Shown here: positions 2,765 through 61,849 of the stretch, one piece after another
Layout of the letters: every line of letters starts with the position of its first letter
How positions within the stretch are numbered: the stretch's first letter is position 1
Assembly (NCBI GenBank): GCA_021432655.1
Contig: MU271273.1
Span: forward strand, 1 to 64,000
Reading direction: 5' to 3'
From: Atractiella rhizophila
Lineage: Eukaryota
DNA: 64,000 nt
Made by a program: the position numbers and the translations under genes
The notes under the pieces: model-generated
What the model saw: only the letters and a program-made list of their open reading frames with translations
What the model was told of the DNA's origin: nothing
Database searches by the model: none

Positions 2765-5084
2765 AATCCAAAGTTTGCATTGTGCTGTCTCCACAGCAAG
2801 GTGCTGCTACCTGTTCCTCCGCCTCCACCTGAAGAGCTACGAAAGCTTTTTACACATGACAATACAACAGGTAAGTATTTCTATTCAATTTTTTTGCATA
2901 TACATATCTGAGAGGAACAATCATTATAGAGTCAATGGCATTTCGAGAGCATATCAGGATATTCAATAATGCTTTTGCATTTACATCCTTAGGCGTCTGC
3001 CAGGTATCAATTCCTGGACATGGTCCCTACTCCTTCAAAATTCAGGGAGAGCTGTGCCACCTTATTGGCACTCTTTTACCACAACAAGAAGGATGTGAAA
3101 CATTTGCACAGGTCTACATTACAGATTCAGCTGTACAGACTGAACGAAGAGTTGGCAACACTTCAATATCACTGAATCATAGGACGCTTGAACACCTTCA
3201 GGCTATGCTCTTCCGTGTCAACCCATATCCCAGGATCTACAAATTTGCAAAAGAAAGAATGGAACAGGATCCCACTACAACACTACATCTTCACACAGTC
3301 GCCCCACGAGATAGGGACCCAAGACGCTACAACATTCCTGTAGCCAGTGAAGTTGCTGTAGTGATGGTAGGAGACGGTAACAGAGAAGAATATGGAGTGG
3401 CCAGAGATATTGTCATCCAGCTCAGGGCAACCAGGACCGGTAGCAACTTACAGCGTGTGAATGAGCTTAACTCAAATTATCTTCCACTTCGTTTTCCTCT
3501 TCTGTTTCCATATGGCGACCAAGGATGGCATCCGCAGATTCCGTATTGAGACCTGCCTGCAGATCTTCCTCCTCACGAGCGAGAGCACTTCAATGATGAC
3601 GGCATGCAAGTTGGTAATTCTGGGGTTCGACAATGTGTCAGCCAAATGGAGTTCTATTGCATCAACGAAATGATATATTCTCACTCCCTCTCTACGGTGG
3701 TCGGCTACTGCAAGAATTGGTAGTCGATGCTTATGCTCAAATTGAGGCGAATCGACTCCGCTATCTGCGGTTCAATCAAGTCTATTCTTCGAGGCGAGGT
3801 GTATCAAGGTCTTACGGACGCCCTTGCAGAAGGCTATTCTTTAGAAGATATCGGGAGGCGGACTATATTACCATCAAGTTTCACTGGCAGTCCACGTTCA
3901 ATGAATCAGCTGTTCCAGGATGCAATGACTATAGTTGGTGCCAAAGGACCCCCAAATATCTTTACAACCTTCACTTGCAACCCACACTGGGCAGAGATCA
4001 CGGAAGCCCTCCTACCAGGACAAAAACCAGAGGATTGACCAGATTTGGTTTCAAGGGTTTTTCGACTGAAGGCTCTGGAGTACATCAAGGATTTAGTGGT
4101 ACGACAGATCTTTGGAAGGGTTATCAGATATGTCTGGGTCATTGAATGTCAGAAGAGAGGTCTACCACATGCCCACATCATGTGGATGGCATCAACGATC
4201 ACGTGATTCAGTGGCTCGAATCCATGGGAGATCGGGTATATTATAGCGCAGATCAAATTATACATGACGAGGGAGATCTCAGAAATCGCTTCTCTGTTGA
4301 GTACCTGAATACCCTGGAGATATCTGGATTCCCTTCACATCGTTTACACCTCAAGACGGGTGCACCCATCAATCTTCTGTGAAATCTCAATCCATCTGTG
4401 GCCTGTGCAACGGCACGCGGCTCATTGTTACTCAGCTTCTCCAACGAGTCATCGAAGCAACCATCATTACAGGTGCACACAGTGGCGAATCAGTTCTCAT
4501 TCCTCGAATTGGCATTGACAGTGCAGTATCAAACCAGCTTCCTTTTCAAATTCCGGCATTTTCAATTCCCTGTGCGCTTAGCGTTTGCCTTAACTCTGAA
4601 TAAACACGTTTGCCTTAACTCTGAATAAAAGGCAAGGACAATCTGTTGGACATGTGGGTTTGTACTTAGAGTCTTCTCCTTTCTCTCATGGGCAGCTTTA
4701 TGTTGGTCTTTCACGGGTTTCAAATGCAAACAATTTACGAGTATTGGTCAAAACAAAGCAAGGAGAAGAAAACAAGCAAACAGATAATGTAGTTTACAAT
4801 GAAGTGTTACAAGTACTCAATCACTGATCATCTCTCAGCATGTTCCTAACAGTATAGTCAAAAGCTGAAGTGGTTCTCTGAGGTACGAGGAGACCACTCA
4901 GCTTTCATTGTTTTTGAAGACAGTAGAGTACATATGGTGAGTCTGTGCTCGCCGAAGGCGAGGCTCCACGCAGTGGCTGCCAGAGGCAAGAGCTCCACAC
5001 AGTGGCCGCGGAGGCTGGGGTCCAAGGGGCGAAGCCCCTGGCAGGGGGGGGGATGCCTGAGGGACGAGGGCACTGACACACTTG
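2765..5084 (+). mobile_element. Helitron copy A: 5'-truncated, internally deleted and non-autonomous
   Basis: Helitron N-terminal motifs (CC..KVLLP..PPP; NNAFAFTSLG; RRYNIP.ASEVAV; LPSSFTGSPR; FTTFTCNPHW), Rep HUH motif QKRGLPHAHI near 4150-4180, Pif1 helicase C-terminus ([22 protein letters not shown]). Stops and frameshifts. Subterminal hairpin and CTTG|T end at 5081-5085. 5' boundary approximate. Confidence 0.92.
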
Positions 5085-5199
5085 TATTACATAAAGCATG
5101 TTGAGTGAAGCTGAGAAGTCAAGATGTGAGTGTATGTATAACGAACTTTTCAACCTGCTCAGCCTGAAGTTTCTTTCACAATGGCAGCCACATCTGTTT

Positions 5200-5545
5200 G
5201 CCTCTCGATCTCTCTCCAATTGTAGCTGAGCCTTGAGAATCATGAGAGGACTGAGTAGTGTCAGGTTTGAGGTGCACGTGGTAGATCCATATTGTATCTG
5301 GTGCTCCACTGAAGATGCTCCACAGCTACCGAACAGCCTAAAAATGAATAATCAGCCTTGGAATTGAATAAGAGTATGAATGAACGAAACCCAAACCAGG
5401 AATGGACAGAATATCCCTTGCCATTCGAGACCACTCCTTCAAATCCATTTCGGACCTCATGTGATAGATGTCTAGAGGATCCTCCGTGGAGACTAAACCA
5501 GATATTTGGTTGCAGTTCCTCATCTTCATGAAACCACTTCATGCG
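5200..5545 (-). pseudogene. hAT transposase C-terminal dimerisation-domain remnant
   Basis: TEDPL...WSRMARDILSIPG [probable intron] SVAVE matches the hAT dimerisation motif; degenerate. Confidence 0.65.
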
Positions 5546-5599
5546 CTGATTAGCTTTCTGGATAAGTTTTGCTGGATACGAGAGTGTTGCTACAGTTTT

Positions 5600-16760: not shown

Positions 16761-17729
16761 GTAATATGGATAGTTCAAGCCTTATGTAATCATGAATCCA
16801 TGTTGGTTCTTTCCTGACCCGAGCACGAGGTATTATTTGTTCCTTCTCGCTAAAAGATAATCCAATGAAAATCATCACATACAGTTGGGGTGATTGATTG
16901 ATTTATGAGAGTTCGCACGTGCCCCATTTAGTGCCATTGAAGTACGCGATTACGAATCCCAACGACTGTTACTCCTTTACTCAAGCTTTACTCTTTCCTC
17001 TACATTGCTTTAGAATCTCTTAGATTTGGCTGATTCGAGCTCTTCTCCAGTCACTCTATATATCTATGAACAATTATTAGTAGCTGCTTGCTTTTCAAAC
17101 ACAAGCTGGGGGCCTCTCGTCCCTCGGGGGGACCACATTGTGTTTCTGATGTTTTTCAATAAAAAGTGGTTGACTATGCTGTTAGGAACATGCTGAGAGA
17201 TAATCAGTGATTGAGTCCCTGGAACTTTGCAGGGCGGGTTGAGTGCTATGGAGGGGACGGAGTAGTGTATCTAGTGCCTGGGAAGTGCTGAACGCTCGAG
17301 GTTCAATGACAACTGTAATGGTCGCCAGAAACACGAACTAGAGACAACGTCAGCAGCAGAATTAACGGATGTCAGGGAAACACAACCCTCAATTGCGGAG
17401 TTGAGTCAACCCTCTCCATGACCACTCTGCATCCGCCATTCAAAAGGCATTGCTCCTGTGGAAGGACTTGAAGAAAGAAGGCCAATGGTGGAAGAATGGA
17501 TTGGTGGATGTGTTGAAATAGAGAGAGCTGGAGAGGAAAGGTGTGTGGAGGTCAACTTATTGCAGTACCACAAAATCCATGTTAGACAGTATATGTCTAC
17601 TAAAATATCGAAATTTCATATTGTAACTAGCAAAATTAGAACCGCTAAATTGATCTACAACCATAACGCAACAATGTAATGGGAATAGGTGAAATGTACT
17701 AGAATAATACAAGCCCACAAACCCTTGAA

Positions 17730-20700
17730 AGCCTTATATCGAGTCTGGAAGATACATTTCCTCATTCTGGTCTGCATCTCCTTCAACCAGAGAGTCGTCT
17801 GCATCCGGTTCGAGAGCTGTGTCAATGACTGTATCAGAGTGGTGGCGAAAAAGAATCCACGCGAATGCTCTACCGTTGCCGTCTTCAGCTTGAAAAATCC
17901 CGATCAAATGGTGGATCTGGTCAAGAGGTACAAGCCGATACTCGTCACTCCATTGGCAGAGGATCTACTCTGTAAGAGGTTTGCTCGTTTGCTGAAAAGC
18001 TGAGTGAGCGCGAAGAACCTGTCAGCCGTTGCATCTGCTGTTGGGTCGAAGAAGGACTCTGGAATTCGAATGTAGACGACAGCCTCACCATAGAAGACGT
18101 CTCCAGCATCATCAATGCCCTATCCATCATGTCAGAGGAGTTTGTAGCTCATATAAGTGTACTAATCTAAATCTGACCTGAAATCTGCGAGCCGTTCTTG
18201 CTTCGAATTTCCATGACCGTTCGAGTCTCCGAGAGCGAATAACATCCCCATTAGCCAAAGAACACCGGCCCCAGTGCTCCCATTTTGCAACAGTCCTCTC
18301 CATATCTTTCATCTGGATAGAGAACATCAACGATGTTCAGCTGCTCTTGCAAAAGTGCTTGGTTAAGGAGATTCCTTGATACGTGTTGTCCTGGTTGATA
18401 CGCTTTTTAAGATAACCGATCATTCCCTCCATTGGAAATTGCGAGTAGAGAATTCCTGGGCCCCAACAGGGAATCCAATCGGCAATGTGCAAGAGATGGT
18501 GGATGCACATGGGCATTCGAACAAGTCGAGATCGATCCCCATGTACAAATACCTTCTCCCAGCCTGTAACGAAATTGGCAAAATATTCTCGAATTTTGAG
18601 CCGCTGCTCTTCCGTAATCTGATGCTGCCATGCGAGCTGGCAGCCACAGACAAAAGAGTCAATTACGTTTAGGACATTGAGAGAAAATCCAAGGAGGAAA
18701 AGGCTAGGAAGAAGCAGCCAGTCATAAACGTCCCACCATTCGTGCATCTTGTACTGAGTGTTTCGAAATCGGTATGTGTTTTGAGGAGCCGCCTGAGAGA
18801 AGGTGTAGGGAATATCGATTTTGAAGTGTTCGATCATGTTCCCAAATTCCTCACGAATTTGCTGTGTCGGATGCCATGGTTCAGGAAGCGACTCCTGCTT
18901 GTTGATCCCCATGGTAGAATCGAAAATGAGTTCAGCATCATTCTTCCAATGGAGATGAGCAAGATCCCCAGCAAAAAAGGTCCAAGGATCACGAAATGTA
19001 GCGAGACCAGATATGGGCGTGATGGAAATGACGCCACTGTCACGAGCTATCTCTGAACGAGCTTTTTGGGTCGTCGCAAGGGCTAGGTCCTTTGCTATTT
19101 GTGTGTATTCTGTCGTTGTGCGAATGGGAAGATTTAGAGGATCGTAGGCGACTGGGCGATAATCAGGTAGTGTACCATCATCCTGGGGAAGCGATATACA
19201 CGGGTAATAGTAGTGTTGGCCAAGAAGCTGACCGATAAGCTTGTAAAAGCGACAGCCACACTTGCCTTGATGGCCTGTGCAGCCGTTAGCCTTTGCAGAG
19301 CCAAGCATGTCACCTATGTGTCTTTCAATGTGAGTTTTAAAGGAAGCAGTGTGAGACTCTTACCGAGCTTGTTGATCAGCCATCCTTTCCAAACAAACCA
19401 CCTTCGATATCCAGCATCCCACATCCACAATCCTCCACTCAACTTTGCCATAGCTTTATAGAATGGAATGAAGAACGATTGGATGTCAACGGGATTGTTG
19501 GGACCAGGAACGCCTAAGGTGAAAAATGTATGACGACGTTTCGCTCGTACGCCTGTGTCGAAGCCCAGAAACGAAAGGATGATGAACCACATGTTAGAGT
19601 CGCGGGTGGCATGGATGGCTGCACCGTCTGTCGAAGCAATAAAGACTGATTCTCGTTCGTCTTCCATGAAGCCAATGTTATCGTTGGCAAGGGCTTGGAC
19701 TGCTGTGCCGTGGTGGAAGTCATCGTAAGTGTATCCACGGCGCAGTTTGTCTAATAAATGCTCCGTTTTTGCCGGTGTTTCTCCCAGCTTCTCTCCAAAG
19801 TATCCCATCATCTCAACATTCTGTGGAGCCCGGAACATCGCCTTAATTCGATGGAGGGGATTGCAGAAGAGAAAATGCTTTTCACTCTTCTTCTTTGTTC
19901 TTGATGAATCGCCTGGTATTGCAGATCGTCCAAAGGAAAGAGAAAAGCGAGGTCAGTTGCATGGCACAATGACGCCGTTAATTTTGCACGAATGTGGACA
20001 TCTAAGTCTTTCGTTAGCACCTTCTTTGCTATTCGAAAACAACCAACTTGCCTATCCAACTTCTCATACTTGTCAAGATAGGAGCTGCAAGAGGCTCCAC
20101 ACATAGGCAACCACTCCCCGGCCAAGCCGCTGAGCTCAGCAAGCATCTTTTTTGCCTCAGGAAGGGTATGCATTTCATGCTTGCGCAAAGTCCAGTTTTG
20201 ACGATGGCCTTCATAGCTTGCCTCTTTCTCGTTGTTTCGGTGCCAGATTCGGAACTCGTCCAAAGTAAGTTGCCGCTTGTCACTAAGCCTGGGGATATCA
20301 TCTGGATGTGTTGGAGGAACAGATGAAAGATTCTTGGAGTTGTCGTCGTAAAGTGGCATGAGGATATCACGAATGTCGCTGCAACACAAAAACAAATATT
20401 AATGCCATTTTCATCACATGTGAGAATCCTTACCATAGCGGGGACACGTGTGTGAGCTCTACAGCTCCAATAGGTTGGGGGGCTTCATCGGGATTTGGAT
20501 TGTGATAAGTCTGCTCATCTTCAGCAATCGATGTAATAACTTCCACCTCCTCTCTCAGCTCTATGCTCTCTCCAACAATCATCTCATCACCATCGACTTC
20601 CATCTCTTCATCACTTCCATCATTCATGTTGCCTGCAGGAATTGCGTCGAGGTCTGTTGTTGAGATATTCATTTCAAGCCGGGAATGCTGAGGCTCAGAT

Positions 20701-20789
20701 GCTGGAGGCTGTTGTATCTTGGGTCGGACTTTCGATGCGTAAGGAACCCTTCGTGAAGGCACAGGATCCTTGCGGGTGCTATGCTTCAA
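17730..20789 (-). pseudogene. CACTA/EnSpm Tnp2-family (Transposase_21 plus DUF4218-like) transposase with introns and apparent frameshifts
   Basis: STDGA...W; VPGPNNPVDIQSFF; WDA...W.W; G|DMLG.AK.NG..GHQG..GCRF; GDLAHL...N; IHHLLHIADWI..WGP....QFPMEGMIG; WGR..L.NG..IRS; YGEAVVY. Start and end approximate. Confidence 0.85.
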
Positions 20790-21303
20790 TGAGATGGCGG
20801 AAGTCGCGATGAAATCAACGCGTAAAGCGGCACGTGTTGCTGATCGTAGCCCATCCTCCTCTGCCTTTTTCTTCCTGGCTCAAGCACGAATGGAGGGATA
20901 TGGCGACGAAGAGTTCCTAGTGGATCTCAGGCTGTCATGGAGAGGGATGGGATGGGATGTCGAACTAGGGTGCATTGAGCTGGATCTCATGGAAAGGACA
21001 AATAGGAGGATGCTCGATAAGAATTGGGAGGGATTCATATGGTGATACTGGTGCACAGAGTAGCTGAAGAAAGGTCTGCTTCTGTTTTCACTGCGATTGT
21101 TGTCAGAAATTCTGACACATTCCTCTCTTCTGGTGCAGAAATGCATGCATTAATTCGAAACATTATATGCACTACATTTTCGTTGAGACAAGAGAACGAC
21201 GACAGCTCCATCCATCCACCTTCCCCTCTCTAAGCACCTCATTTTACCACACTCCTATCTCTCCTACATGCTGCGATTCTCTCTGTTTCTTGCCAAAGCC
21301 ACA

Positions 21304-22245
21304 ATGTCGAGAAACAACGACTCCTTCGCTGACCGCATCCAAATGGCTACGCGGCGTGATCTCTTCTTGAATCCTTATGTCCAAGAGCTGGAGTCAAAGT
21401 TAGCTGAAGTGGAGACTGCGTTGGAGAGGGAGCAGACTGATAAAGATAAGTGGAAAAAGTTCTATATGGAGAAGGACGAAGAGGTCAATCGATTAAAGCT
21501 CCAGCTTGAGAAGGTTAGGAAGGCACCTCTGCCTGCAAAAGCAACCTACTCCGTATCGAAAGATCGCATAGAAGGCATGATGACCACAGAGTTTACAGAT
21601 CCCATCGCTGAAGTATCAGAAGAAGATTGGATCAGAAAACCAGTGAAAGCATACCGCCCAATCATAGGACAGGACGATGCGGACAAGCTTGGGATCTTCT
21701 GGGAACGAAAGCAAGCGGCTGCCGCTACGCGTACCGGAGTCCAGAACAATATCCTCGATCCAGTTCGGGTATTGCACCAGCTTATATTCGACGAAACAGA
21801 CAACACTGTCATTGGGGCTACGCAACTATCTCAGGCTACTGCCGATGTTATACGAAACAACGCCAGCCTTTACGCCAAAACCTACCTCAACACTACCAAA
21901 TCGATCAAGAACCAGACTGGGATCTGCAAAACGACATATCTTCCGAACATCCTGCGCAAACTCGAGTTGGATTACAGCACTGTCCTCTGTATTGGCAAGA
22001 CGGACTGGATGAGTCGCATCTTTGTGACTTTGGTGCTGAGGAATACCTGTGGGAGCATCTATGATGACGATGACGATGACGGTGAGGAGGTGGCTGCTAA
22101 AGGAAGCCAGATGGTTAAGAGAGGAGTGAAGCGAAAGAGTGATAGTGAGGGACCTGTTATATTGAGTGAGAAAAGGATTCGGATAGACGATGTATGTGAA
22201 GATCACAGCGAAGGTACGCATCTCTTATTTGGCTTGCATAGCTGA
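21304..22245 (+). CDS. Accessory ORF 1 of the TIR element (N-terminal coiled coil, acidic tract, basic NLS-like KRGVKRK); unknown function
   Basis: Open frame 21268-22245 with a plausible ATG at 21304; heptad-like ELESKLAEVETALERE; possible donor near 22213, so it may splice to the next ORF. Confidence 0.6.
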   Translation: MSRNNDSFADRIQMATRRDLFLNPYVQELESKLAEVETALEREQTDKDKWKKFYMEKDEEVNRLKLQLEKVRKAPLPAKATYSVSKDRIEGMMTTEFTDPIAEVSEEDWIRKPVKAYRPIIGQDDADKLGIFWERKQAAAATRTGVQNNILDPVRVLHQLIFDETDNTVIGATQLSQATADVIRNNASLYAKTYLNTTKSIKNQTGICKTTYLPNILRKLELDYSTVLCIGKTDWMSRIFVTLVLRNTCGSIYDDDDDDGEEVAAKGSQMVKRGVKRKSDSEGPVILSEKRIRIDDVCEDHSEGTHLLFGLHS

Positions 22246-22537
22246 TGATGTCAGTGAAGCTGGTAGGTCTATTGGCATAGCGGGAACAACAGTGTTGGCA
22301 TCAAAACCCAAAAAGAAGTATAGAGCAATAGTGCATTTTCGATCTCCTCAAATGATGAGATAATGCTGATTTCTGTGTAGTCCGACCTGCCCCAGGACCC
22401 ACACAGAGGCAAAACGATGATACAAGGCAAGAATCACCTGCACAAACAGTCTGCCACTGCACCGGATAGTATTGTAGCATCAATTGGTATGATATTTCTA
22501 CATTTCAACCAGTGCTTGAAATAACAAGTAGATAGAT

Positions 22538-24256
22538 TTGCTCAAAGCGATGGGTGTAGACGATGATACTGCCATCAACCTCAATATTCTGGCTACCTTC
22601 GTCGAAACTGGCATGTTACCTCTCAGCCAGGCTACCAGCGAAACCCTCACTGAATCAGCTACAAAACACCTCCTTGTGGCCGTAAACTCTGCAGAATCCG
22701 ACTTCCATCTTCCGATCGACGCAGATGACGAACAGTACACATCCGAAGACCTGCAGAACAGTCCTCGAGGGGATACGCTTGGCCATAACAGCCTTGGAGA
22801 AGAGATTCTGTTCCGCTTGAAGAGATGGGAGAACGTAGGTTCTCGAAAGGCAATTTTGGAGCTTCTACATGCTGTTTTGCGTGGCGCAATGGTCTCAAAG
22901 CGGTTGTGTAAGAGATGGAAAGATGCACACCCTAATTCTACTGAAGTGACGCCCTTACTCTTGAATTTCGGCTGCATTGGGAGGCTGGCAGAGAGTTTGG
23001 TCGAAACTTGGCTTGACGGAGGTGGCAGCAATGCTGTGGATGTAAGTGTCGTTCCTTATTCTTATGAGAGGATGCATATGCTGATTCAGGCCGGAAAGGA
23101 TTTACGTTTGGCCAAAGATCTCAAGGACACCATAGTGCAAGGCGAATATTCAATAGCGTTGCAGGAGAAGATGATGTATCGAAAAACCTTCACAACTCCA
23201 AACAAGGTAACAAATGAGAAGAATCCCCGAATCGAACAACATCAGATAAAAAAAAAAAAAGGAGGTGGCAGCAATGCTGTGGATGTAAGTGTCGTTCCTT
23301 ATTCTTATGAGAGGATGCATATGCTGATTCAGGCCGGAAAGGATTTACGTTTGGCGAAAGATCTCAAGAACACCATAGCGCAAGGCGAATATTCAATAGC
23401 GTTGCAGGAGAAGATGATGTATCGAAAAACCTTCGCAACTCCAAACAAGGTAACAAATGAGAAGAATCCCCGAATCGAACAACATCAGATTTCTCCACTC
23501 CATCCCCCCCCTGATGATAACGGTTTCCATCCTCCTCAACCTTCTTCCAGCGCCACTCTCCCTGCCATCGAGCACACTCTCTCTTCTATCAACCACGAAT
23601 TCTCGCCACCTCAGTCTGCAGACCATGCCCCACCTCCTGTCGACTGCAGTTTCCCTCCTATCAACCCCGTTTCCCCCTATATTGACCACAGTTTCCCTCC
23701 TCCCACCGATCCTAGTCTCCTGCTCCCCAAGCAAACCCATAGCGACCCACAGCCGGTTGGCACACCCAAATATGCACTCCCAGTTCAGACTCTGGATATC
23801 CAGCCTGTTCCATATCTTCTAGCACTGGGGGGGGCAGGCAAAAGGAGTTGGTATGAGCAAGAAAAAGAGAGGGAGATCGAAGAAGAATGTTGAGGAAACT
23901 GGTGGGCTGCCACAAGAGGAAATATTGAAGTTGCACGAGGATGTAGAGCAGCTGCGGCCACTGTTGGACATGAATACAACGGCACAGCTTGTAGAAGCTA
24001 AAAAACTGGCCAAGGACAACAACTGGAAAGCATACCATTGGAAGAAGATGCTGCAGTATCAAGTATGCCTTACGTGTCTGCCAGCTAACTACTTACCTGA
24101 GGTTAGGTGATCAACAAAGAGGTTATCATCACCAAGTTCAACTCCATCGACAAAAGAACTCTCGAGCTTCTCCGGCTCCTTAAAATGGACCAAGGCAATC
24201 GATCCCTACTGCCAGAAGTCGCGAACGAAGGATGTAGTGCACTAGCGGTGCCTTAA
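22538..24256 (+). CDS. Accessory ORF 2 of the TIR element (internal 81-codon duplication, Pro-rich region); unknown function
   Basis: 451-aa open frame 22538-23893 continued in another frame at 23853-24110 and a probable last exon to about 24256. Confidence 0.55.
23018..23490 (+). repeat. 230-bp direct duplication separated by an A13 tract
   Basis: 23018-23247 versus 23261-23490, four substitutions seen by eye; A13 at 23248-23260. Confidence 0.95.
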
Positions 24257-24716
24257 ACGGACAGCTATCACGACGACGATCAGAGAAGGAGCGAGGTGGA
24301 TCACCTGATTGAGGGTACTATGGCGACATTGAAGGAGCTGGCACTGCATGGGATGATGGTGTAGTGTAGTGGAGACAAAGATAGGGAGTGCAAAGCATGC
24401 ATGTCATAGTATTTCGGTGTATCTGAGCAGAGACTGGATGCCCCCTGGAGCAACACTGCAAAGACACTACGAAGGCACTGCAGAGCACTAATCTCAAGCA
24501 CGAAAGCGACACTGACTTAGCACAGACTGCACACTAAAAGCACCAGATATACAATTTAAGCAAAAAACACCGACTAGGCACTGACCTGCACTGACTGCAC
24601 TAAGTGTGGACTGCTGCGGAGCCTGCGGAACCAAAAATCGTCCCTAAACTGATCTAACTCTGCACTGTTTTGGGGGATGGTGCATAGTGCATTGAGTGAC
24701 TACAGCTGCACTAGGT
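24230..24716. repeat. Subterminal (G/A)CACT repeat array of the TIR element
   Basis: About a dozen GCACT/ACACT motifs before the right TIR; four inverted AGTG(C/T) motifs at 17241-17290 after the left TIR. Confidence 0.7.
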
Positions 24717-25006
24717 CCGCCCTGCAAAGTTCCAGGGATTGAGTGCTCATAACACTTCTTTGGAACTACATTATCTGTTAAATTGTGTGCAGGCACTCAC
24801 AGCTTCAAGAGTGACAAATGTGAGGGAACAAAGAATCGAAACGATACCAAAAACAAAATTATGTCACACTCTCACTTAACACCAACTACACCATCGCACA
24901 GCCTCTTTGTCTTAAAACCCGATGTTAAGTAGGTAAGGAAAACTTGCCCTAAGTACCAACTTGACGCACAATTATTTTTTGTCCTTTAAATAAGCTTTGT
25001 TGTGTA

Positions 25007-28000
25007 CAAGTGTGTCAGTGCCCTCGTCCCTCGGGCATCCCCCCCGCCAAGGGCTTCGCCCCTTGGACCCCAGCCTCCGGCGGCCAGTGCGTGGAGCTTT
25101 GCCTCTGGCAGCCACTGCGTGGGGCCTCGCCTTCGGCGAGATCAGAGTTACACTTGTCCTGCAATTGTCAAGTGTGAAGAGTATTGTCAGTCTATTTGCA
25201 TACGTTTTTGTAGATTCAAAACTTCTCTATATTCTACATTCTCAGTTTTCTTATTATCAGTCACTTCCACTTGATGTAAATAAACTCTAAGATTCTTCAC
25301 ATTTGAAGCTCTTGACAGTCTGACATAAAGTTGTCCATGAGCAAACACAGGGGTATCCAAGTATAGGCTAACAGTCTCAACTGACTGACCCTGTGACTTG
25401 TTGATAGTGAGGCAGAATGCTAACTTGATTGGGAATTGAAACCGGCGTAGGACAAAGGGAAATGAATTGGAGACTTTGCTATCCAAAGCGATGCGTGGAA
25501 TGAGAACTGAGTTGCCTGCGAATGCACCTGTGACAATTGTTGCCTCGATGACGCGAGAGAGTACCTGGGTAACGATCAAACGTGTACCATTACAGAGCCC
25601 AGCAGAAGGGTTGAGGTTTCGAATGAGGATGATAGGGGCTCCGACTTTGAGATGCAAGCGATGAAGAGGAAGGCCCGTAACATTGAGAGTATTAAGGTAC
25701 TCGACCGTAAAGCCTTGCTGAACATTCTCATTGTCATCCATCAAACGATCAGCACTGAGATAAATTCGTTCCTGTCGGGAGATAAATCTTCGGATAAGCT
25801 GATCATTTATCAGGTCGACATCAACGTTTCGAGCAGTGAGGACCATGCGCTCTTGGAAGTACTGCCTCAGTTGATCACGATATAGGTCTTCAGTAATGGT
25901 GTTAAGCCCAGGATAGATGTCATTTAAGAGACCTTCCAGGCCACGTGAGTGTGGGATTATTGTTCCATCCTTCATGGTCAATGGACCACAACCACAGTCA
26001 TCTGGGTTGTCAGTTGCACCATTTCCAACTGACAGCAACCAATTAGCAAAGTCAGAAGCGATAGCAAAGTCATCAGCTGCCATATCAGCCTGGTGACGGA
26101 GAAGACGCATGTTGGCCGTGAGAGGAAGGATCGTAACTGCTGGCCAAAACGGACTGTTGATGACACATGCATCAACAATCTGTGCACGTGAAGCCTTGGG
26201 AATGACAGAGAGGCATTGTCGCATGTCACCTAATCTATTTATCAGAGGTGAAGTCTTTGAATTATCCCACTTACCACCTAGAACAAAAATTACTCCGCCA
26301 AAAGGCGCATCTACTTTACGCATATCTCTCAGCATCCGATCGACTGCCTCAAAGCACCAACGATGGCTCATACCCACTTCATCCCATATTATCAATTCTG
26401 CCTCACGGCAAAGTCGTCCATGATCACTCTGAGCCTTAACACCACAGATTGAATCTGCTTCAAGGTCCAATGGTATTCGAAAGCGTGTGTGGGCAGTTCG
26501 TCCCCCTTCCAACAGGATAGCAGCAATGCCTGAGGAGGCCACAGCGAGCGCAATCTTCCCAGTTGAACGAACTTTGGCAAGTAGTAAGTTTTCAACAAAA
26601 GTCTTTCCTGTCCCTCCTGGCCCATCAATGAAGAACAGACCTCCACTTCCCTCTTCCCAAGCCGCTATGATGGTGTCATAAGCATGACGTTGATCCTAAT
26701 TAAGCAACAGCACCCCCCTGTTGAGACGCTCTTGAAGTTGTAGACGATCATATGCCAGCTCTTCACCAATTATTTTTGTCTCACCCCCCCACCTTTCTAA
26801 CCTCTCTGTCGGTTGTGGTAGTCCAAAATCCGACAGAGACTTTGTGTGAGCCTGTAAGAGATCTTCAATCTCGAGGAGACAGAGACTGATGATTTGTTCT
26901 TCGTGCGGATTGGCTATACCGTACTTTGTCTGCAGTAAACGTTTGCAATCATCGCTAAGTCGTTGAGATGGTTGTCCCATAACGTTCTTGGTTCACTTGC
27001 GACACCAAAAAGAAGGATATAGACAAAAAGGGACCGCATAGCATGACCATTCTTGACTGAGCTGGCTTCCTCAAGGCAAAAGTCCCATTCTTCATCGCTT
27101 TCTAAAAGTCCCAGTGCCACACATGCGGCTTTAAATGTTTCATAAACCCTTCCCTCCACTGTCCGAACATTCTCAAAAGACTTTGGGCTGGCTACCTTGT
27201 GTAAGAGAAGTCGGAGGTAGAAAAGCTCTCCTTGTGATGGTGCAACATAGTAGATCCTTCCAATAGCTTCTCCTCTCTGCCTGATTTTCTATGAGCATGT
27301 GTTTGATTTCCAAGTAAGGTATTGAGGTGCTTTTGGATATGTCAAGTCCTCAGTAATGTCGGGGTGTTTCATATAGAAGTCAAAAAATTGAGTTAGTGTG
27401 GTCTTGCTAATGTTTGGGCTGGAAAGGATATCGTTGAGGGACTCTTCCTCTGGATTGAACGTGATAGACTGTTGATTGGGGAGGTGGATGGCTAATCGCT
27501 TGAATGTTGGAAAATGGTGATGCAATTGAAAGCGGAAGATGCGGTAACAGGCTAAGATATATGTCAGACAATCTAAAATATGCTGAAACGTACGTGCATT
27601 GTCACAGCGTCGATAAGTTGGATATCCATCGTCATTGATGCCTGGCTCTGCTGCAAATGGTTTGGGGTACCCCTTGCTACAGATCTTTCTGCCTGGCCTT
27701 TTAGGATCCTCTACCATGCAGGGACTATCTGGATTAATGTCTCCACATGGTCCATGAAGCATATGCTGACATACAATATCGAAAAGCTCGGGGTCAGCAT
27801 CTTTGTCTGGTAGTTCGGCGGATACAACATGGTCGATAGCTTCAGCATCCCTAATGGTATCTTGTGGATGAAGAATGATGAGAATATGAGTATGAGGTAG
27901 ACCACGTTTCTGAAACTCAATTACCCAAACAAATCCGACTGTCCTCCCGAAGATTGTGTTCTCTTTGATCTCCTGCATATAGGCTTTAACCTTTACACTG

Positions 28001-29516
28001 AAGACCCTAGAGACCAAATCTGGTATGTCTGTAGCGGTTTGTCCAGGCAGTAAAGCTTCAGTGATTTCTGGCCAGCGAGGATTGCAGGTAAATGTTGTAA
28101 AGATGGTCGACCAGTTTTATTGCCGACCAACTCTGACCCCTTGGACGACGGGTCTGCCAAGAATTGTATTCTTTTTCTGTAGGGAATCTCTTCAGCTGGT
28201 GCAGATTTGCTCTCAAATGGCACGCACCTTTGGAAGATAAATTGGCTATAGCAGTGGCACTTGTTGCCTTGGACTTCCATGCCGCTGCTTGCTGTGAGAG
28301 ATAGCAACACTTCTAGGATGCCCATGTTTAGAAGATCACTGTTGATATCATCTGTGGAATACGTCAGCCACACTTCTCGCTGGAAAGCCGCACAGCTTAC
28401 CACTCAAGTCCAAACAGCTGCACGAGCCGTCATCTCAGACTGGATGCTGATCGGCACAGTTGAGGACAAGTTACTTGATTTTATCCACAGCCCCGGCTTC
28501 AACCATACCTGACTTGTTCTTCCCGCTCGACGCCGCGAGATTATGGAGAGTGGAGATGGCATGACATTGTATCTCTTTGTTCTCGTCGTATGCCAGCAGA
28601 TCGATGAGGAGATAAGGAAGCCGGATTCAATGAAGGAGAACTCATTCACGGGATGGATGGAGACGAAGGTCGGGGAGGAGAGGATAAGAGGTAGGAACGA
28701 TGATTGAAGGAGATGAAGAAGCGGAGAAGGCCGCCAGATTTGACAATCTCAGTTTGAGATTTCTCTGTTGTGGAATCATAGGAGTTGAGAAGAGAAATGA
28801 ACAGACCATTCAGATGTGAGGTTTCAGAGTGCCAAAGCGGCTTGACACTGGACCTTAAGCGAAGGGCTGTCCATGAGGGTGATGACATTCTGAACAAGCT
28901 TCAGGTTTGTATTCAATAACTTCTTTCGGTTGTTGGCTGTGATGCACCAGTAAGAGAAAGTTTTTGGACAGGAGGAAAAGAAAGCCGAGCCATCAACAGC
29001 AAAGTTGGACAGAGCCGTTGTGCAGTAGTACTGAACGTCGGTGTCGGGAGAGCTGCAGGCTTACAAGGACAGACATTGCTACTGCATTGACGAGCTGTTG
29101 GCGATTCTCATCTGTTATAATTTCAGTGATGTCACATTTGGCAGACTCAGGGAGATAAATCACCGCTCTGTGTCCTGTTCAGGAGAGCACCAGTAGCATT
29201 CCGCTGGACGCGCATGTCCTTGCTTTTTGTATAAGAGGAACGAGAGCACTGGATCTTGCAATCCTAGTTTTACCCTCATCTGGAATGGTATCAGTTTGCA
29301 GCCGAAACAGAACGTCCGCTTCTTGATTTCTGACCTTCCCTTCCTCCTCCCTTAGCCCAGCAGTCACCTTCATATGCTCTTGTTTATGGTAGTTAAAGTA
29401 CTCAATGTCGGACCTGTCTCCGCCACCTCCATTTTCAGTTTCCCTGTCCTTTTCCCTTTTATAAATAGCGTTGTTTCTAGTGCTGTGGCAGATGTCAATA
29501 TATACAAATGTAGAGA
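25007..29516 (-). mobile_element. Helitron copy B, the most complete Rep-helicase copy; defective
   Basis: 3' end CTTG|T at 25007 with subterminal hairpins; candidate 5' end A|TCTCTACATTTGTATATA at 29516 (tentative); Rep and Pif1 helicase coding inside. Confidence 0.88.
25187..28110 (-). pseudogene. Helitron Rep (HUH endonuclease)-Pif1 helicase with stops and frameshifts
   Basis: TFTCNPRW; EFQKRGLPHTHIL; YPTYRR; FKAACVALGLL; Walker A DGPGGTGKT near 26600-26630; IIWDE; APFGG; LCNGTRL; TINKSQGQ; HGQLYV. Confidence 0.92.
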
Positions 29517-32390: not shown

Positions 32391-32411
32391 ATCATCATCA
32401 TCATCATCATC
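32391..32411. repeat. (ATC)7 microsatellite
   Basis: Directly visible. Confidence 0.9.
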
Positions 32412-38200: not shown

Positions 38201-38208
38201 TGAGCTCT

Positions 38209-41982: not shown

Positions 41983-44078
41983 TCATGAGCTGTTTTGGCT
42001 TTGCACAAATCCATCCGGCGGAAGCCATATGATCAAAACAAGTCGATACCCAATGATACTTTTGTACCGAATCAGTGCGGCCCCGTAGGTTGGAGGACAT
42101 ACATCTTCTGGGTTCTGAGCTTCCAATCCTGCGAAAAACAAACACCGAGGGAAAATATGGTACAACAGATCCACTCCACATTGAGCGATTCTCGAAGCAG
42201 TGGTAATGATGTTTGAGCTATAATGGCTGGCGGGTCGAATGTGGATAAGTCGGCTAAGATAAATGACAAGGGAATTGAAAAAGACAGATTGATAGAGAAG
42301 GTTGAGCAGCTCGGGAGTGAGGGTCAGGTTGAGCATTGCGACATTGGTAACACCACAGAACTGCTGCAACTGATCATGACCTTTATCCAGTTCCCTCTTT
42401 GACAAAATGAGAGCTTGAAGGATCGCCTCGCCTCTGTGGATTATCGTGTCAACTTGCTGCGCTGGAGCGAGGGAGCTGCAAAGGGACTGCAGCTCATGGT
42501 CAAGCAATGATGCTTGAGCAGCAAAGTGATAAAGGCTACATCACTGCTGTCCTACCCACATCGGTGGACAAAAAGAAATGCTCACTGCAACCACTCCACA
42601 TATGCATTCGGAACAGTTGGCACGAAACTGTCCCCAATGGAAGGCTCAAAGGTGGATTGTGACAGCCAATAAGCGAACTTTGGCTCCTTAGCTCCAAAAG
42701 ATGAGGAGCTAAGGCAAAGACGAGTAAGGATGATTGCACAGGATTGCGCAGTTGGACTCAAAGTAGCGAAGTTGTGGTTAGTCGAGGCCAGTACATCTTG
42801 CGCCATGTCCAAGACCAAGGTCATCGCTTGAGGAGTCGTCCCGTTGCTGATCTCCCATAAAGCGTATGTAACTAAGGTGGGGAGGATGAGGTCAACAATG
42901 AGGGAGATACCAGAGCTGTCCCAAGGATATCTAAGGAGTGTTAAGGATCTCTGGTGCTTGTATTGGGCGCCAATAAGGAGGCCAGGTCGGTTTGTCCGTC
43001 TGCTGAGATGAAGTACAGTGTGAGCCATGAGCCCTACTCTTAACTTCAACCATGGAACAAAGACTTCTATGACGCATACCATCATAGAGAGGAGCGCAGA
43101 AGAGGGACGCTCCGAACAATGCCAGGAAAAAGTTCCTCTATGGCTTTGGATGTTGGCTCAAGACCATCCAGGAAATATCGAATGAGGTTGGCTTGAGCTG
43201 ATAACTGGACGGGATACTCTCCAGGGAACACAGCTCTTTGCTTGTGATCTTCCGTCGTAGATTGACGTAACAAGTGTATCTGCGGCCTTCGTCCCTCAGG
43301 CCCCCAACCCACTCGCAAGGGGCATGGCCCCTTGAACCCTACTCTGAGTCATGTAAGGGTTCGAGTCCAGTATGAAACGCAATTTTTACCCCCTTCAGAA
43401 TAAAATTTCCTTGCAGGTTCAGAAAGGGGCAAGCATATGGGTTATGATGGCATATTTTATTTCATTCTACTGGGCATGGTGAGGGAGGTGTGAGAGCTCA
43501 AAAGTGCGTCTTATGACTCATGCCAAGAAACCCAACGCTCTTATATTGACGTAATGATGAAGAAGGTTCTGGTAAGGTGCCTGGTTGGCGCAGAATAGGC
43601 CGTTCTGACATTAGAACAGGAGGTGTAGGTAAACAATGGAAATCATTTGGAGGACTTTGAGGTCCTCTTGCTTGGGGGGGACTGGACGAAGACGCCGGGG
43701 ATGAGGAGAGATTATGGTCTTGCGGTAGAAGAGTTGCGACGACCGCTTGAGAAGCTGAGGGCCTAGATAACTTTGCAGGATTCACAGGGGACGGCTGATC
43801 CTGGTCAGTAGTGTCTTGAAGCGCAGGCGCAGAGATCTTCTGATAGACACAGTTGAGGTAAAGTCGTCCGCAGTTCGCGCATCCAGGCTTCTCTTCGCCA
43901 CATTTCACGCGGCGTTGTTTGCAAATCAAGCAACCTGAAGGACGCACAAAATCGGCATTTCCATCAAGTATTGATTGCGACAACAAACAGACCTTTTTTT
44001 GCTGCAAGAGAAACGTGGTTTAAACCCTCGTCTAGAGGAGAGAGTCGCACCCCAGCTCCGGCGCCTTTCGTCTGCCAT
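41983..44078 (-). pseudogene. Zn(II)2Cys6 transcription factor gene disrupted by a 274-bp Helitron-derived insertion
   Basis: ATG at 44078; spliced SKKG|CLICKQRRVKCGEEKPGCANCGRLYLNCVY binuclear cluster; downstream helical region in ORFs 43082-43318, 42582-43085 and 41983-42507. Confidence 0.85.
43271..43544 (-). mobile_element. Helitron 3'-terminal fragment E flanked by a 10-bp direct repeat
   Basis: Minus strand ends CAAGGGGC-CAT-GCCCCTTG...GGCCT-GAGGGACGA-AGGCC-GCAGATACACTTG|T; ATTGACGTAA at 43261-43270 and 43545-43554. Confidence 0.85.
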
Positions 44079-50600: not shown

Positions 50601-51043
50601 TCTCGGAGTGATAGATCAGCGTCTGAACGGGCATAGCATCCCTGTGTGCCGACATAGAATTCAACATGTGCGACACCCATGAAGACTTCCCATCATAGAT
50701 GATTGGGAGGACAGGCTCCTGAACTTGAAGTACATCAAGGAGAGGAGCAATTGAGACTCGAAAGGCTTCTTGTTTTGGTGTGTTATTGTTGAAGTTCAGC
50801 CCGCCACCACCACTCACGGCTTACTAAGAACGACGTGATGCCACATATTCGAGGGGATTCTATTTTCTTCTCGCTTCTTCTTGCTTACTTATTTTCTTAC
50901 GCGTTGGTGTACTTCTAGAATTTGTTTGCCACATCTTTCTCAGATATATAAACCGTGTTAAAGTCAGGCAGAAATATGTAGTAATGATATCTTTGTTTCC
51001 TCTCAACTAAAAAACTCGCATCATTATTCGCAGTCTTACAACA

Positions 51044-51055
51044 GGTTATGAGCCC
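51044..51055 (+). promoter_or_regulatory. Primer-binding site of the half-tRNAiMet type
   Basis: GGTTATGAGCCC immediately after the 5' LTR, resembling the anticodon-arm PBS of Drosophila copia and yeast Ty5. Confidence 0.8.
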
Positions 51056-51132
51056 AAACGCCTGACCAGCAAGATCAATACCATTCACACCCACGAAGAA
51101 AACACCTCACCAATCCACTGCTAACAGCCACC

Positions 51133-54100: not shown

Positions 54101-55258
54101 CTCCCGGATTCGACGATGGGACGGGACGCGTCTACAGGCTCGTCAAAGGGCTGTACGGCTTGAAGCAAGCCGGAAGGATCTGGAACATCAGGCTCAACAA
54201 GGTCCTCGAGGGCCTCGGGTTCAAAATATCAACAGCAGACTACTGCGTCTACATTCGCAGGACGGGAGGCACCGTCACGACCCTCTTAGTCTGGGTTGAC
54301 GACATCGTGCTTGTCTCGAACGACAGAACCGAGCTTGCAACAGTCAAGGAGGAGTTGCAGCGTGCCTTCGAGGTCACAGACCAAGGGCAGGGCAACCTCC
54401 TGCTCGGAATCCAAATCCTACGAGACAAGGAGAAGGGCACGATTGCACTTTCGCAAGCAAATTACGTCGACACCATGCTCAAGCGCTATCACATGGAGAA
54501 CGCAAAACCTTCATTTATTCCAATCGATCCGAACACAAAGCTGCTGCCGAGCAGCGACAGCGATTCTCTTGTCGACGAAAAAACTCTACCAAGGAGCGGT
54601 TGGATCGCTCATGTACGCCGTGATGGGGACGCGTCCCGACATCGCGTTTGCGGTCCAAACTGTCAGTCAATTTTCTTCAAAGCCAAATCAATCGCATTGG
54701 ACAGCGGTCCAACGCATCTTCCGCTACCTCAAAGCGACGAAGGAACGGGCGCTTGTTTACGGGGGTGACGGAGGGAGGCTCACCAAAGTTGTCGGGTACT
54801 GCGACGCTGACGGGAACTCCAGCGAGGCAAACGGACGCAAAGCCATCTCTGGCTACGTGTACCTTGTGTCGGGGGGTGCGATATCTTGGTCCTCAAAGAA
54901 GCAGACCACAACAGCGCTATCAACTACTGAAGCCGAGTACGTCGCAATGTCGCATGCAGCCCGGGAAGCCATCTGGCTGCGAAAACTCTTCACGGACATC
55001 GGATTCGCACCAAACGGCGCAACCACTCTTTTCTGCGACAACCAGGCCGCGATATCTCTCTCGGCGAACCCCGAGTTTCACCGTCGCACAAAGCACATCG
55101 ATATAATCCACCATTTCATCAGAGATCAAGTCACTGATGCGAAAATCGACGTCGCATACGTACCTTCCGAGGAAAACCTCTCTGATATTTTCACCAAAGC
55201 TCTCTCAAGACCTGCGGTGGACAAGTTCACTCAAGAAATGGGATTGGTGACGGACTGA
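51133..55258 (+). CDS. Copia gag-pol polyprotein (gag, CCHC knuckle, protease, integrase, RT, RNase H) with one frameshift near 54580
   Basis: CFNCGKKGHFKADC; WLGDSGTTSH; WHRAFGH...C..C; SDVWGP, DQGSEF, GVAERMNRTL; KARLVAQG; LYGLKQA; VWVDD; second frame LYQGAVGSLMY...CDAD...STTEAEY...KHIDI. Confidence 0.96.
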
Positions 55259-58200: not shown

Positions 58201-58449
58201 TCTGCTTTCCACAAACATTGACGGTCTAAGCAACACTGGTCAACATAATTCTCTATTACGCCCTGATAACGAAGGCAGAGTGCGAGCATGTCATGTGTTG
58301 AGGATCAGCGTGTGTGGCAAGAGGACAAGTATCTTCAGTTCTTCATCAGAGAGTTTTCCGAGTTCGTCAAGGGTCTCCTCTAGTATCTTGAACCTCCCCC
58401 CTCGTCGTTCAGGCATCAACCGAAGATGTCTCACAATAAAACGAAGCTA

Positions 58450-59400: not shown

Positions 59401-60817
59401 AGAGCCCTCCATCGCCCCTGTTTCATCCACTACTAGATCCGCCAGGAGCAGTGGGTTGAAAATGGACTGCTGCAGCGCACAACGAACTTTCCGAGCTTGC
59501 ACAATATAGGATGGTAAGTCGTATTTATTCTCACTTTCACATAAACCATCCCAGAGCAGTTTAAGGCTTTTAAGACGGTGTCAAAAACCAGAATCAGATG
59601 AAGATTGGGGCGGTATCCAGAGAATGCGCGATGAAGGGGCAAACGGTATCTTCTTCCTTAGAAGAGAGCTGTTTCCTCAGCTCCTCACATGTCTTGTAAA
59701 GCCAAAAAGAAGCCTAAGCAATGAGTCAAAATTAAATAGGAAGGGTGAGAGAAATAATGTATGTAGTTTCTGTCCTGCCGCATGGTTGTGACCACACTCT
59801 TCAAGACAAGACTTCAAGCTTGTCATAACCGGGAATGGCAAAGTTTCTGTAATGCGAATATGGACCCAATGAGAGTAATCCGGGCCGAGTGCAGAATGAA
59901 AGGCTTTACATCTCACGGTCTGATTTTTCTTTCTCTCTTGCTAATTGACGTTCCTTCTTCATTATTCCTCTTTACCATATCCACCAACTTGATTTGGCAT
60001 GTTGGCTTTGATGGCACCTGCTAATGATGGAGAAAGTAGTGCCAGCAACACCCATGATGCCTTTTATCGACAATTTGGGATCAACACTTTGAATGGAGCA
60101 CTGGAGCGACTGAGGCGAGACTAGTCAGAAGAAGATTCTGGTCTTAAATTGGACAGGCACCAGGTGCACAGAGGAACCTCTGACTTCTTGTTCTTGATGA
60201 GCCAGCCGACCTGGCCAGCTTGACTAAAAGATCCTACATAAATTTGCGCAGCTATAGAAATCTGAAGCCACGTTAGGAGACGTGTTGTTGTTGTGGTGGA
60301 AAGAAGATGAAGAATTAGAAGGAGGAGGAGAGGGCGATATTGGTCTTTTCTTCAAGAGAATGGAAGGGATAGGAGCATGATTTAGAGTTTCAATGCTGAT
60401 TGCAGAAGAAGGTTGACTGAGGCTCAGCCCATTATCATAGACCAAGAAACGACCCATCATGCTAAGTGGGGAGCAATCAAGAAGGCAGAGAGGTTGTTGA
60501 CATTTTTCCATGTGTGACTGAACAACAGCAAGAGGAATTGTCCCATATTTATTGACTGCTCCTTTCTGTTTATCCCAGCCAATAATATGCATTTGCAGAC
60601 CTTCCCAAAAATGAAGAGTGTTCTGAATCCAACCAATCGAATAATCATGACAAAAGTGCTGAAAAGACTTGTGATACAGAGTGCAGCAATTTGTGTTACA
60701 AGATCAACTAGGGCTCCACATCAGTGTCAGCGGCGCCGTCGAAGCTCTTCACTATCTGTATCATCATGACCAGCTCGACGACATCAGAGACAGCGTTCAT
60801 CCTCCACTGAGGAGTAT

Positions 60818-61849
60818 CAACCCTTCACTTGCAACCCACACTGGGCAGAGATCACAGAAGCCCTCCTACCGGGACAAAAACCAGAGGATCAACCAGATTT
60901 GGTTTCAAGGGTTTTTCGACTGAAGGCTCTGGAGTACATCAAGGATTTAGTGGTACGACAGATCTTTGGAAGGGTTATCGGATATGTCTGGGTCATTGAA
61001 TGTCAGAAGAGAGGTCTACCACATGCCCACATCATGTGGATGGCATCAACGATCGCTTGATTCCGTGGCTCGCATCCATAGGAGATCGGGTATATTATAG
61101 TGCAGATCAAATTATAGATGACGAGGGAGATCTCAGAAATCGCTTCTCTGTCAAGTACCTGAATACCCTGGAGATCTCTGGATTCCCTTCGCATCGTTTA
61201 CACCTCAAGACTGGTGCACCCATCATTCTTCTGTGAAATCTCAATCCATCTGCTGGCCTGTGCAACGGCACGCGGCTCATTGTCACTCAGCTTCTCCGAC
61301 GAGTCATCGAAGCAACCATCATTACAGGTGCACACAGTGGCGAATCTGTTCTCATTCCTCGAATCGGCATTGACAGTGCGGTATCAAACCAGCTTCCTTT
61401 TCAAATCCAGCGCTTCAATTTCCTGTGCGCTTAGTGTTTGCCTTAACTCTGAATAAAGTGCAAGGACAATCTGTTGGACATGTGGGTTTGTACTTAGAGT
61501 CTTCTCCTTTCTCTCATGGGCAGCTTTATGTTGGTCTTTCACGGGTTTGAAATGCAAACAATTTACGAGTACTGGTCCAACAAAGCAAGGAGACGAAAAC
61601 AAGCAAACAGATAATGTAGTTTACAAGGAAGTGTTATGAGTACTCAATCACTGATCATCTCTCAGCATGTTCCTAACAATATAGTCAACACTAAGCTTTC
61701 ATTGTTTTTTGAAGACAGTAGAGTACATATGATGAGTCTGTGCTCGCTGAAGGCGAGGCCCCACGCAGTGGCTGCCGGAGGCTGGGGTCCAAGGGGCGAA
61801 GCCCCTGGTGGGGGGAGATGCCTGAGGGACGAGGGCACTGACACACTTG
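60818..61849 (+). mobile_element. Helitron copy C: 5'-truncated close relative of copy A
   Basis: High similarity to 3965-5084 including the same Rep/helicase deletion junction; ends CTTG|T at 61846-61850. Confidence 0.92.

Follow-up and report, generated by a model that had tools for sequence, protein, structure and literature searches.

The nine letters that fill the loop of a terminal hairpin in the Helitrons of Atractiella rhizophila are most likely, judging by their pattern, held constant as a compact, purine-paired cap that forms only on the moving DNA strand. The window, a stretch of 64,000 nucleotides (contig MU271273.1, positions 1 to 64,000), contains five such hairpins, each followed by CTTG|T: terminal loop A at 5059-5067 (+ strand, end at 5084), loop D at 17117-17125 (−, 17102), loop B at 25024-25032 (−, 25007), loop E at 43289-43297 (−, 43271) and loop C at 61824-61832 (+, 61849). 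A sequence-only reading had described identical loops at these five places on differing stems, and had taken them for Helitron 3' ends. Loops, stems and junctions are all as it gave them; the exact 9-mer occurs five times in the window against a shuffle mean of 0.43, a count of five being reached in 0 of 100 shuffles. A genome-wide search for the 9-mer followed by CTTGT returned 168 sites versus 16 for a reversed control, which supports the Helitron identity. The five do not count as separate cases: A, B and C carry one common end module, which leaves three end lineages and one bypassed internal end, D'.

Copy A (2740..5084, +) is a 5'-truncated, internally deleted family-1 Helitron with Rep and helicase fragments. 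It includes D' (4861..4905, +), a bypassed end hairpin with a long stem, T at loop position 5 and CTTT next to it in place of CTTG, followed by the A-type end module (4948..5084, +), in which C-GNA-G triloop hairpins precede the terminal hairpin (stem 5054-5058/5068-5072 around the loop) and CTTG at 5081-5084. Copy C (60815..61849, +), a family-1 fragment with the same type of module from 61743, has the D' hairpin deleted. Copy B has its A-type module at 25007..25140 (−), a PIF1-type helicase frame of a family-2 RepHel at 25187..26695 (−; PF05970, E 6e-66) and a Rep fragment with an HUH motif at 27289..28116 (−; PF14214, E 1e-28). Copy D (17102..17216, −) is the 3' portion of a non-autonomous Helitron of D type, from a family about 645 nt long; the middle part of the same element (24738..25006, −) abuts the 3' end of copy B, and the two parts are split by an inverted-repeat element with 21-nt ends and a 7-nt target duplication (17217..24737), which is no part of the hairpin system. 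Copy E lies at 43271..43543 (−). The window copies lack intact 5' ends, A being cut at 2740 and E missing its first few bases. Elsewhere in the genome lies a second copy of E that matches over 274 nt without a difference, which suggests recent activity and nothing further. The window E is flanked by a 10-nt direct repeat, an exception to insertion without target duplication.

The elements show most traits of canonical Helitrons (HLE1). A TC start after a host A is present in D copies, E copies and the full-length elements L794 and L795, and the subterminal hairpin lies about 10 nt before the end. One E copy is inserted without target duplication at an A|T site within a repeat that 11 other loci show in its empty form, and T stands just 3' of the end in 25 of 26 A, 27 of 28 E and 18 of 19 D copies. 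The RepHel domains (HUH, two tyrosines, PIF1 helicase) are represented by the Pfam matches in copy B and by L794, where HUH, YxxKYxxK and Walker A motifs lie in two frames with a break between them; in none of the 8 stretches examined did a fully intact RepHel gene occur together with an intact end. The helicase part is at most 53% identical to public proteins (best 120 listed). The 3' end is CTTG rather than CTRR, a variant published for HELPO2 of Pleurotus ostreatus (PMC4289320); TC start, A|T insertion, RepHel, subterminal hairpin and CTTG are all shared with HELPO2 and canonical HLE1 (PMC4289320, PMC11417382). The Pleurotus hairpins of Table S1 differ in having loops of 2-4 nt, the 9-mer being in none, and the most frequent hairpin there has a C-GTA-G triloop (PMC4289320). 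Traits of Helitron2/Helentron (HLE2) are absent: junctions are A|T rather than T|T, and no inverted match between the two element ends was seen in E or D.

When representatives of A, E, D and D' are compared, four of the five outer stem pairs differ in both bases, and in the loop only position 5 varies (G/A/T). The G3-C7 pair is unvarying in 15 of 15 distinct rows of an alignment whose 16 rows were hand-picked among loci with a G-A-G-G-N-A-C-G-A loop; since the rows were preselected by that pattern, the alignment shows the occurrence of N and the variation of the stem, and not by itself the invariance of the loop. Stem covariation had also been proposed. It holds only for the T-A pair of E, a fixed compensation with T in 27 and A in 28 of 28 copies, and fails for TGCCT versus TGCCC, which is CpG decay, T being the base in 9 of the 62 ends of A type that were collected without using the loop (hand count). 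Stem compensation may even come from fold-back copying without selection. Inverted loops, seen in one terminal hairpin and 2 of 22 D' hairpins, come from fold-back copying or assembly slips, which do occur. What is directly observed is the pattern of the letters and where it occurs, the lineages of ends, and the swapping of ends between elements.

The nine letters can be parsed as a pyrimidine-GA-purine block around a GNA triloop, and both arms keep the pyrimidine-GA-purine context as well as the inner Watson-Crick pair. The CGAG block has been defined by NMR (PMC10085684), and DNA mini-hairpins are formed only by GNA loops (PMC13037366). The core matches these motifs in having a GGA loop flanked by two CGAG (or TGAG/CGAA) tetramers; in what is available of these reports, the combination of block and triloop does not appear as a solved structure (PMC10085684, PMC13037366, PMC3201870). 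We infer that the 9-mer folds as a cap and that RepHel responds to the fold. The hairpin itself is the usual terminator of Helitron transposition, while its nine-base loop would be folded DNA that caps the stem. In the top strand, once displaced (C/T-GAG-GGA-CGA-G/A), the stem pair would be followed by sheared G1.A9 and A2.G8 pairs and, inside these, by a Watson-Crick G3-C7 pair; G4-N5-A6 would form the triloop, with a sheared G.A pair closing it. The cap would lengthen a weak stem of 3-5 bp. The complementary strand, with T or C throughout at the cap positions, could not fold in this way, and the cap would therefore mark the transposed strand. RepHel, having nicked and become attached at the 5' TC, would unwind as far as the cap fold and make its second cut at CTTG|T, 15-18 nt past the cap. 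The terminator role (PMC4778049), the use of the top strand (PMC5876387) and the DNA motifs (PMC10085684, PMC13037366) in this scheme are taken from the literature. Taken as a whole, from terminator hairpin to responding RepHel, we consider the explanation a rather probable one.

Several structural details bear on such a fold. The extra-stable GCGNAGC has a C:G closing pair, which the upstream hairpins of the A module possess and the terminal cap does not; its triloop closes with G:C, a closure weaker by about 3 kcal/mol (PMC3201870). ViennaRNA, a program that cannot model sheared pairs, leaves the loop open, and the z-score of the last 45 nt is unremarkable. C-GNA-G hairpins number five on the top strand of the A module (two being a tandem duplicate) and none on the bottom strand, compared with a mean of 0.23 and a maximum of 3 in 5000 shuffles. 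A role for a G-quadruplex, suggested by the G runs of the A ends, was set aside, as the D ends are without such runs (sequence inspection only).

The same cap is found in viruses. In viral contigs, the cap core with N left free extends by at least three pairs in 16 of the 99 distinct matches listed, compared with 1 of 61 listed matches for a control in which AG replaces GA (p = 0.003) and 0 of 61 for one with the block kept and a TNT loop (p = 0.0006); the longer C-GNA-G version extends in 13 of 120 listed. The middle base may be any of the four in these viral hairpins, is G and rarely A in terminal ends, and is T in the bypassed end. In the viruses such hairpins may work at the RNA level or serve other purposes. 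No Helitron helicase was found in the viral contigs, and the 98 matches there to the cap with CTWGT were mostly chance. Bacterial chromosomes gave no excess of the cap (1 of 30 loci examined), and Rfam gave no match.

That the nine letters resolve into block and triloop, and that viruses carry the same cap, makes an open loop read base by base doubtful. The proposal of a Rep recognition signal in the loop thus keeps the constraint across lineages on its side and loses the open nine-base loop. It is nevertheless conceivable, if unlikely, that RepHel reads the loop bases whether folded or not, and that the G5-to-T change caused the bypass of D'. Position 5 of terminal ends is almost always G (168 sites against one or two true ends with A), even though A is the commonest middle base in the viral matches listed and the most stable one in GCGNAGC (PMC13037366). 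Yet D' is also without CTTG, a loss sufficient alone to explain its bypass; A stands at position 5 in two D-type ends whose flanks differ (L114 and L118, the latter decayed); the same loop is used by two RepHel families only 55% identical; and the viruses that carry the cap are unrelated to Helitrons. A search for loops with N other than G gave 15 matches (control 18), one of them a true end. In the bat Helraiser, a stem swap kept about 90% of activity, and a loop mutant was as inactive as a hairpin deletion (PMC4778049). That mutant also lost the closing pair, and so does not separate sequence from shape. Helraiser resembles these ends in its terminator hairpin upstream of a 3' tetranucleotide, harmed by loop change and tolerant of stem swap (PMC4778049), and in yielding new ends by bypass (PMC4778049, PMC5876387); it joins only top strands (PMC5876387). 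It differs in its ATT loop and CTAG end, and a purine-paired cap is not described in the accessible parts of these reports (PMC4778049, PMC5876387). The greater weight of the loop over the sequence of the stem is already published for Helraiser and not new here.

A less likely possibility still, and an improbable one in our view, is that related or exchanged ends share the loop by descent and end swapping only, with no special constraint on it. One near-identical A module stands behind helicases that share 61-100% identity (26 of the 30 loci were kept), which indicates that ends are exchanged between helicase families. Over 72 nt the ends of A and E share 72-79% identity, and the tail before CTTG is common to both, but the upstream hairpin loop did change between them, from GAA to CAT. 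D and E, families with 55% Rep identity, have 5' ends 69% identical over 64 nt, whereas their 3' ends share nothing alignable except a 17-nt core with the loop matching 9/9, for which the chance at 69% identity is 0.69^9 = 0.034. Descent would also leave unexplained the viral excess and the strand bias of GNA hairpins. Among copies the picture is mixed. The loop decays like its neighbours in A copies (7/152 versus 96/2585, p = 0.51; a single inverted copy contributes much of this) and not significantly less in D copies (4/120 versus 142/2052, p = 0.19), and changes more rarely in E copies (2/196 versus 414/6817, p = 0.001), which are non-independent and picked by similarity. Columns with shared variants number 0 in the loop against 6/119, 41/261 and 14/130 overall, no single test being significant. 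The loop is intact in 44 of 62 A-type ends collected without using it and in 45-46 of 66 E-type ends (both hand counts). Its supposed invariance therefore stands across end lineages, position 5 excepted, and extends to only part of the decayed copies; as the constrained part of the terminator, it is supported across lineages and is not provable among copies. Two decayed copies whose flanks differ carry a G3T change; two G4T copies, by comparison, have common flanks and were rejected as independent changes, being one duplicated insertion. A hairpin with a TATA-like loop before CTTGT (26 matches) was likewise rejected as a counter-example: conservation runs past CTTGT in 12 of 12 loci read, which places the hairpin inside another repeat, probably an LTR.

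The suggested analogy to nonanucleotide loops, in which the loop itself would be nicked as in geminivirus-like replicons, is scarcely credible despite the nine-base loop on a GC-rich stem and the HUH enzyme, because the flanks diverge only after CTTG, 15-18 nt past the loop, no junction maps within it, and it is purine-rich, whereas the nonanucleotide origin is an AT-rich nonamer ending in TATTAC. The cut of replicases falls within the loop, and that of relaxases 3' of the hairpin (PMC4814116); the junction here has the relaxase layout. The oriT of MOBQ/MobA relaxases is similarly a single-stranded DNA hairpin, cut 3' of it, for closing strand transfer (PMC4814116). At one bacterial locus, L548, a sequence resembling the A module lies next to the gene for a MobA/MobL relaxase, and its hairpin may be the oriT; this is one case in 13 prokaryotic matches, the others being intergenic repeats or coding matches. 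When plasmids were searched for the A module and for L548, all matches were short and weak, and L548 had no full-length relative there. The REP sequences beside RAYT transposases are also short HUH-associated hairpins, several with C-GNA-G centres, but they are bacterial, GTAG-tagged and served by another enzyme, and a tandem GA block is not noted in the available text (PMC2817692).

A cross-species helicase search of metagenomes gave 36 loci at 33-51% identity and reached no close relatives; among the 31 loci examined, 22 with at least 300 nt downstream, the 9-mer on a stem was found in none. Five or six candidate ends bear other hairpins, and two Helitron ends (L144, L164/165) have one with a C-GTA-G triloop. 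Sequencing runs matched in small shares only, four of them giving fragments. No link of Helitrons to the 9-mer, triloop, mini-hairpin or G-A terms was found in the literature within scope, which left aside most subscription papers, figures and Repbase; the HELIANO supplement gave 0 matches for six motifs, and the accessible text of the mini-hairpin review has 0 mentions of transposons (PMC13037366).

Recognition of the terminator by RepHel decides read-through and gene capture, and in this genome a clean case is recorded in which an end was bypassed and another family's end then captured. The natural variation also yields a position-by-position hypothesis of eight structured bases and one free base. 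In its boldest form, with the A module descending from the end of a prokaryotic HUH element, the wider reading is very improbable. It is more tenable, though somewhat short of an even chance, that what is read in HLE1 terminators is a non-canonical fold specific to one strand, a tandem sheared G.A block with a GNA triloop, belonging to a repertoire of single-stranded DNA signals common to phage hairpins, bacterial intergenic repeats and a relaxase transfer origin. If so, the Helraiser result of loop over stem would reflect a shape code. HelSearch was set to loops of 2-4 nt, at least 6 pairs and CTRR (PMC4289320), so ends such as these would be missed in annotation, and the long-loop ends overlooked by short-loop search tools would then form a hidden class.

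The elements behind the five ends are Helitrons. Copy B, whose end lies at 25007-, holds a Rep frame and a PIF1 helicase frame, and a near-complete relative of about 5.85 kb (L794), which starts between A and TC and ends between CTTG and T, carries the HUH, two-tyrosine and Walker A motifs. RepHel falls into two families, with a Rep identity of 55% between them. The D element (window copy, 17102-) is non-autonomous, about 645 nt long, and has its 5' end in common with family 1, and the E element (window copy, 43271-) measures about 275-290 nt, its first 200 nt being family 2 at 92%; one E copy was inserted between the A and T of a repeat whose empty form is found in 11 other loci. The Helitron family, the terminator role and the CTTG end are already published. 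The five 9-mer loops lie where the sequence-only reading had put them (the remaining two are A, 5084+, and C, 61849+), against 0.43 expected in the window; each tops a short stem, with CTTG and then T after it. Genome-wide, the 9-mer followed by CTTGT occurs at 168 sites in 51 Mb versus 16 for the control, and in the flanks compared the similarity between copies stops directly after CTTG. A Zn2Cys6 domain suggests that this genome is fungal.

All five ends are real, but they represent three lineages rather than five independent cases, as A, B and C are one module of about 140 nt. This A-type module stands behind helicases 61-100% identical to that of copy B (30 helicase-selected loci, of which 26 were kept after dropping two without an end and two duplicates). 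The stem difference TGCCT/TGCCC, earlier taken as covariation, is CpG decay, with T in 9/62 A-type ends by hand count. In family 1, a bypassed D-like hairpin (D', 4861-4905 in copy A) lies upstream of the A module; its loop has a T as fifth base, CTTT replaces CTTG, and it was found in 22 loci with distinct flanks. The A end is 72-79% identical to the family-2 E end. The simplest history would be that family 1 lost its own end, was read through and acquired the A end.

The junctions and neighbours of these elements have oddities of their own. At the 5' junction of many D, E and family-1 elements, the first 4-30 nt are repeated in tandem one to four additional times (L092, L093, L099, L101, L102, L110, L016, L794, L797), as though the start had been joined repeatedly. 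Within 43261-43553, window copy E is without its family's first bases and has a 10-nt direct repeat at its flanks; L074 is otherwise identical, but its start is normal. The D element is split by a 7.5-kb element (17217-24737) that has inverted ends of 21 nt and duplicated 7 nt of its target; its frames gave no Pfam match and no convincing NCBIfam match. Helitron ends abut other Helitron copies at 25007/25006 and in L038, L042, L053, L092 and L105, in the orders A then E, A then D, and D then E, which suggests side-by-side insertion or composite elements. In L002/L003, L008/L009 and L010/L011 an A end faces a D end 1.2 kb away, one block in three duplicated copies. A Copia-like LTR element, its two 258-nt LTRs identical, occupies 50787-55523, and the highly repetitive L790 (G000:C457:1251-5501), with several open frames above 1000 codons and a Helitron helicase piece inside, has no end hairpin.

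The core of the hairpin and its flanking pair consist of two pyrimidine-GA-purine tetramers surrounding GGA. Two such tetramers pair as C:G, sheared G:A, A:G and G:C, in a block whose structure is known from NMR (PMC10085684), and GNA is described as the sole three-base loop able to form DNA mini-hairpins (PMC13037366). In the 9-mer, unlike those mini-hairpins, the triloop closes with G:C, a weaker closing pair than C:G (PMC3201870). We think it probable that the loop is a folded, strand-marking cap (two sheared G.A pairs, the G3-C7 pair and a GNA triloop), read mainly as shape. On this reading the fifth base should be free, and unrelated DNA should contain the same cap. The literature searched, with the HELPO2 alignment figure and Repbase outside its scope, gave no description of a canonical Helitron whose terminator bears such a purine-paired cap. 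The top strand of the A module forms five C-GNA-G hairpins, against at most 3 in 5000 shuffles, and its bottom strand forms none; Helraiser transposition uses the top strand (PMC5876387); D ends have no such hairpin upstream, and in E one upstream C-GNA-G loop is changed to CAT.

Among the distinct matches listed in viral contigs for the core (three fixed stem pairs, middle base free), the stem continued for at least three more pairs in 16/99, versus 1/61 with GA reversed and 0/61 with a non-GNA loop; all four middle bases occur in these extended hairpins. When the core was lengthened to a C-GNA-G form and two pairs were fixed, 13/120 were extended. No excess of the extended core was seen in 401 bacterial genomes (1/30 loci read). 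A composite pattern of GNA hairpin followed by cap matched 2 viral and 13 prokaryotic loci. Both viral matches lie beside a terminase-like gene, several prokaryotic ones are intergenic repeats, and the bacterial L548:2975-3065, closely like the A module, adjoins a MobA/MobL relaxase gene. These matches are a lead, and no evidence of descent. Other bacterial look-alikes are L542, L543, L545, L547, L549 and L550; among them is an intergenic repeat of Iamia and Acidimicrobiia bins, with 23 core matches versus 2 for the control in one genome. The same cap occurs in viral hairpins of L538, L539 and several of L337-L458, some on 2.3-kb contigs and two just upstream of a terminase-like gene.

The loop had earlier been proposed as a sequence-specific Rep signal. 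The Helraiser hairpin is a terminator (PMC4778049), in which a stem swap retained about 90% of activity and a loop mutant behaved as a deletion (PMC4778049), so the core of that idea has published precedent. That RepHel reads the bases themselves would agree with G at position 5 in nearly all terminal ends (A only in L114 and the decayed L118); we nevertheless place the folded cap above it and regard direct base reading as doubtful.

Nor is the loop invariant, as once claimed, being only partly kept among copies. In searches that did not constrain the loop, 44/62 A ends (66 rows less 4 unrelated) and 45-46/66 E ends (94 rows less 28 unrelated) had it intact, and 13 of the 18 altered A-end loops are CpG transitions. 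Non-CpG substitutions in loop versus rest were 7/152 and 96/2585 for A (p=0.51), 4/120 and 142/2052 for D (p=0.19; 20/30 loci), and 2/196 and 414/6817 for E (p=0.001; 28/30 loci, the copies being related and chosen by similarity). Such differences mostly reflect post-insertion decay and say little about selection. The signal is clearer between lineages. D and E are 69% identical over 64 aligned nt at their 5' ends and have only a 17-nt core in common at their 3' ends; the loop agrees 9/9, with a probability of 0.034 under the 5'-end identity rate, and plain descent is an improbable source of the common loop. Across 16 representatives, hand-picked with the loop pattern and hence no proof of its invariance, four outer stem pairs are altered on both sides, the pair G3-C7 never changes, and G, A or T stands at position 5; fold-back copying can also produce such stem compensation. 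Loops inverted within an unchanged stem were seen in L052 (terminal) and in L054 and L318 (D'), either real inversions or assembly slips. The suggested analogy with nonanucleotide origins fails, and a nicked nonamer is hardly credible, because the junction lies 15-18 nt 3' of the loop, while the cut of a replicase falls inside the loop and that of a relaxase 3' of the hairpin (PMC4814116).

Helitrons do not in general carry the 9-mer, which was on a stem in 0 of 31 metagenome loci examined. Two metagenome Helitron ends have C-GNA-G triloops, and the commonest Pleurotus hairpin is a C-GNA-G triloop as well (Table S1, PMC4289320).
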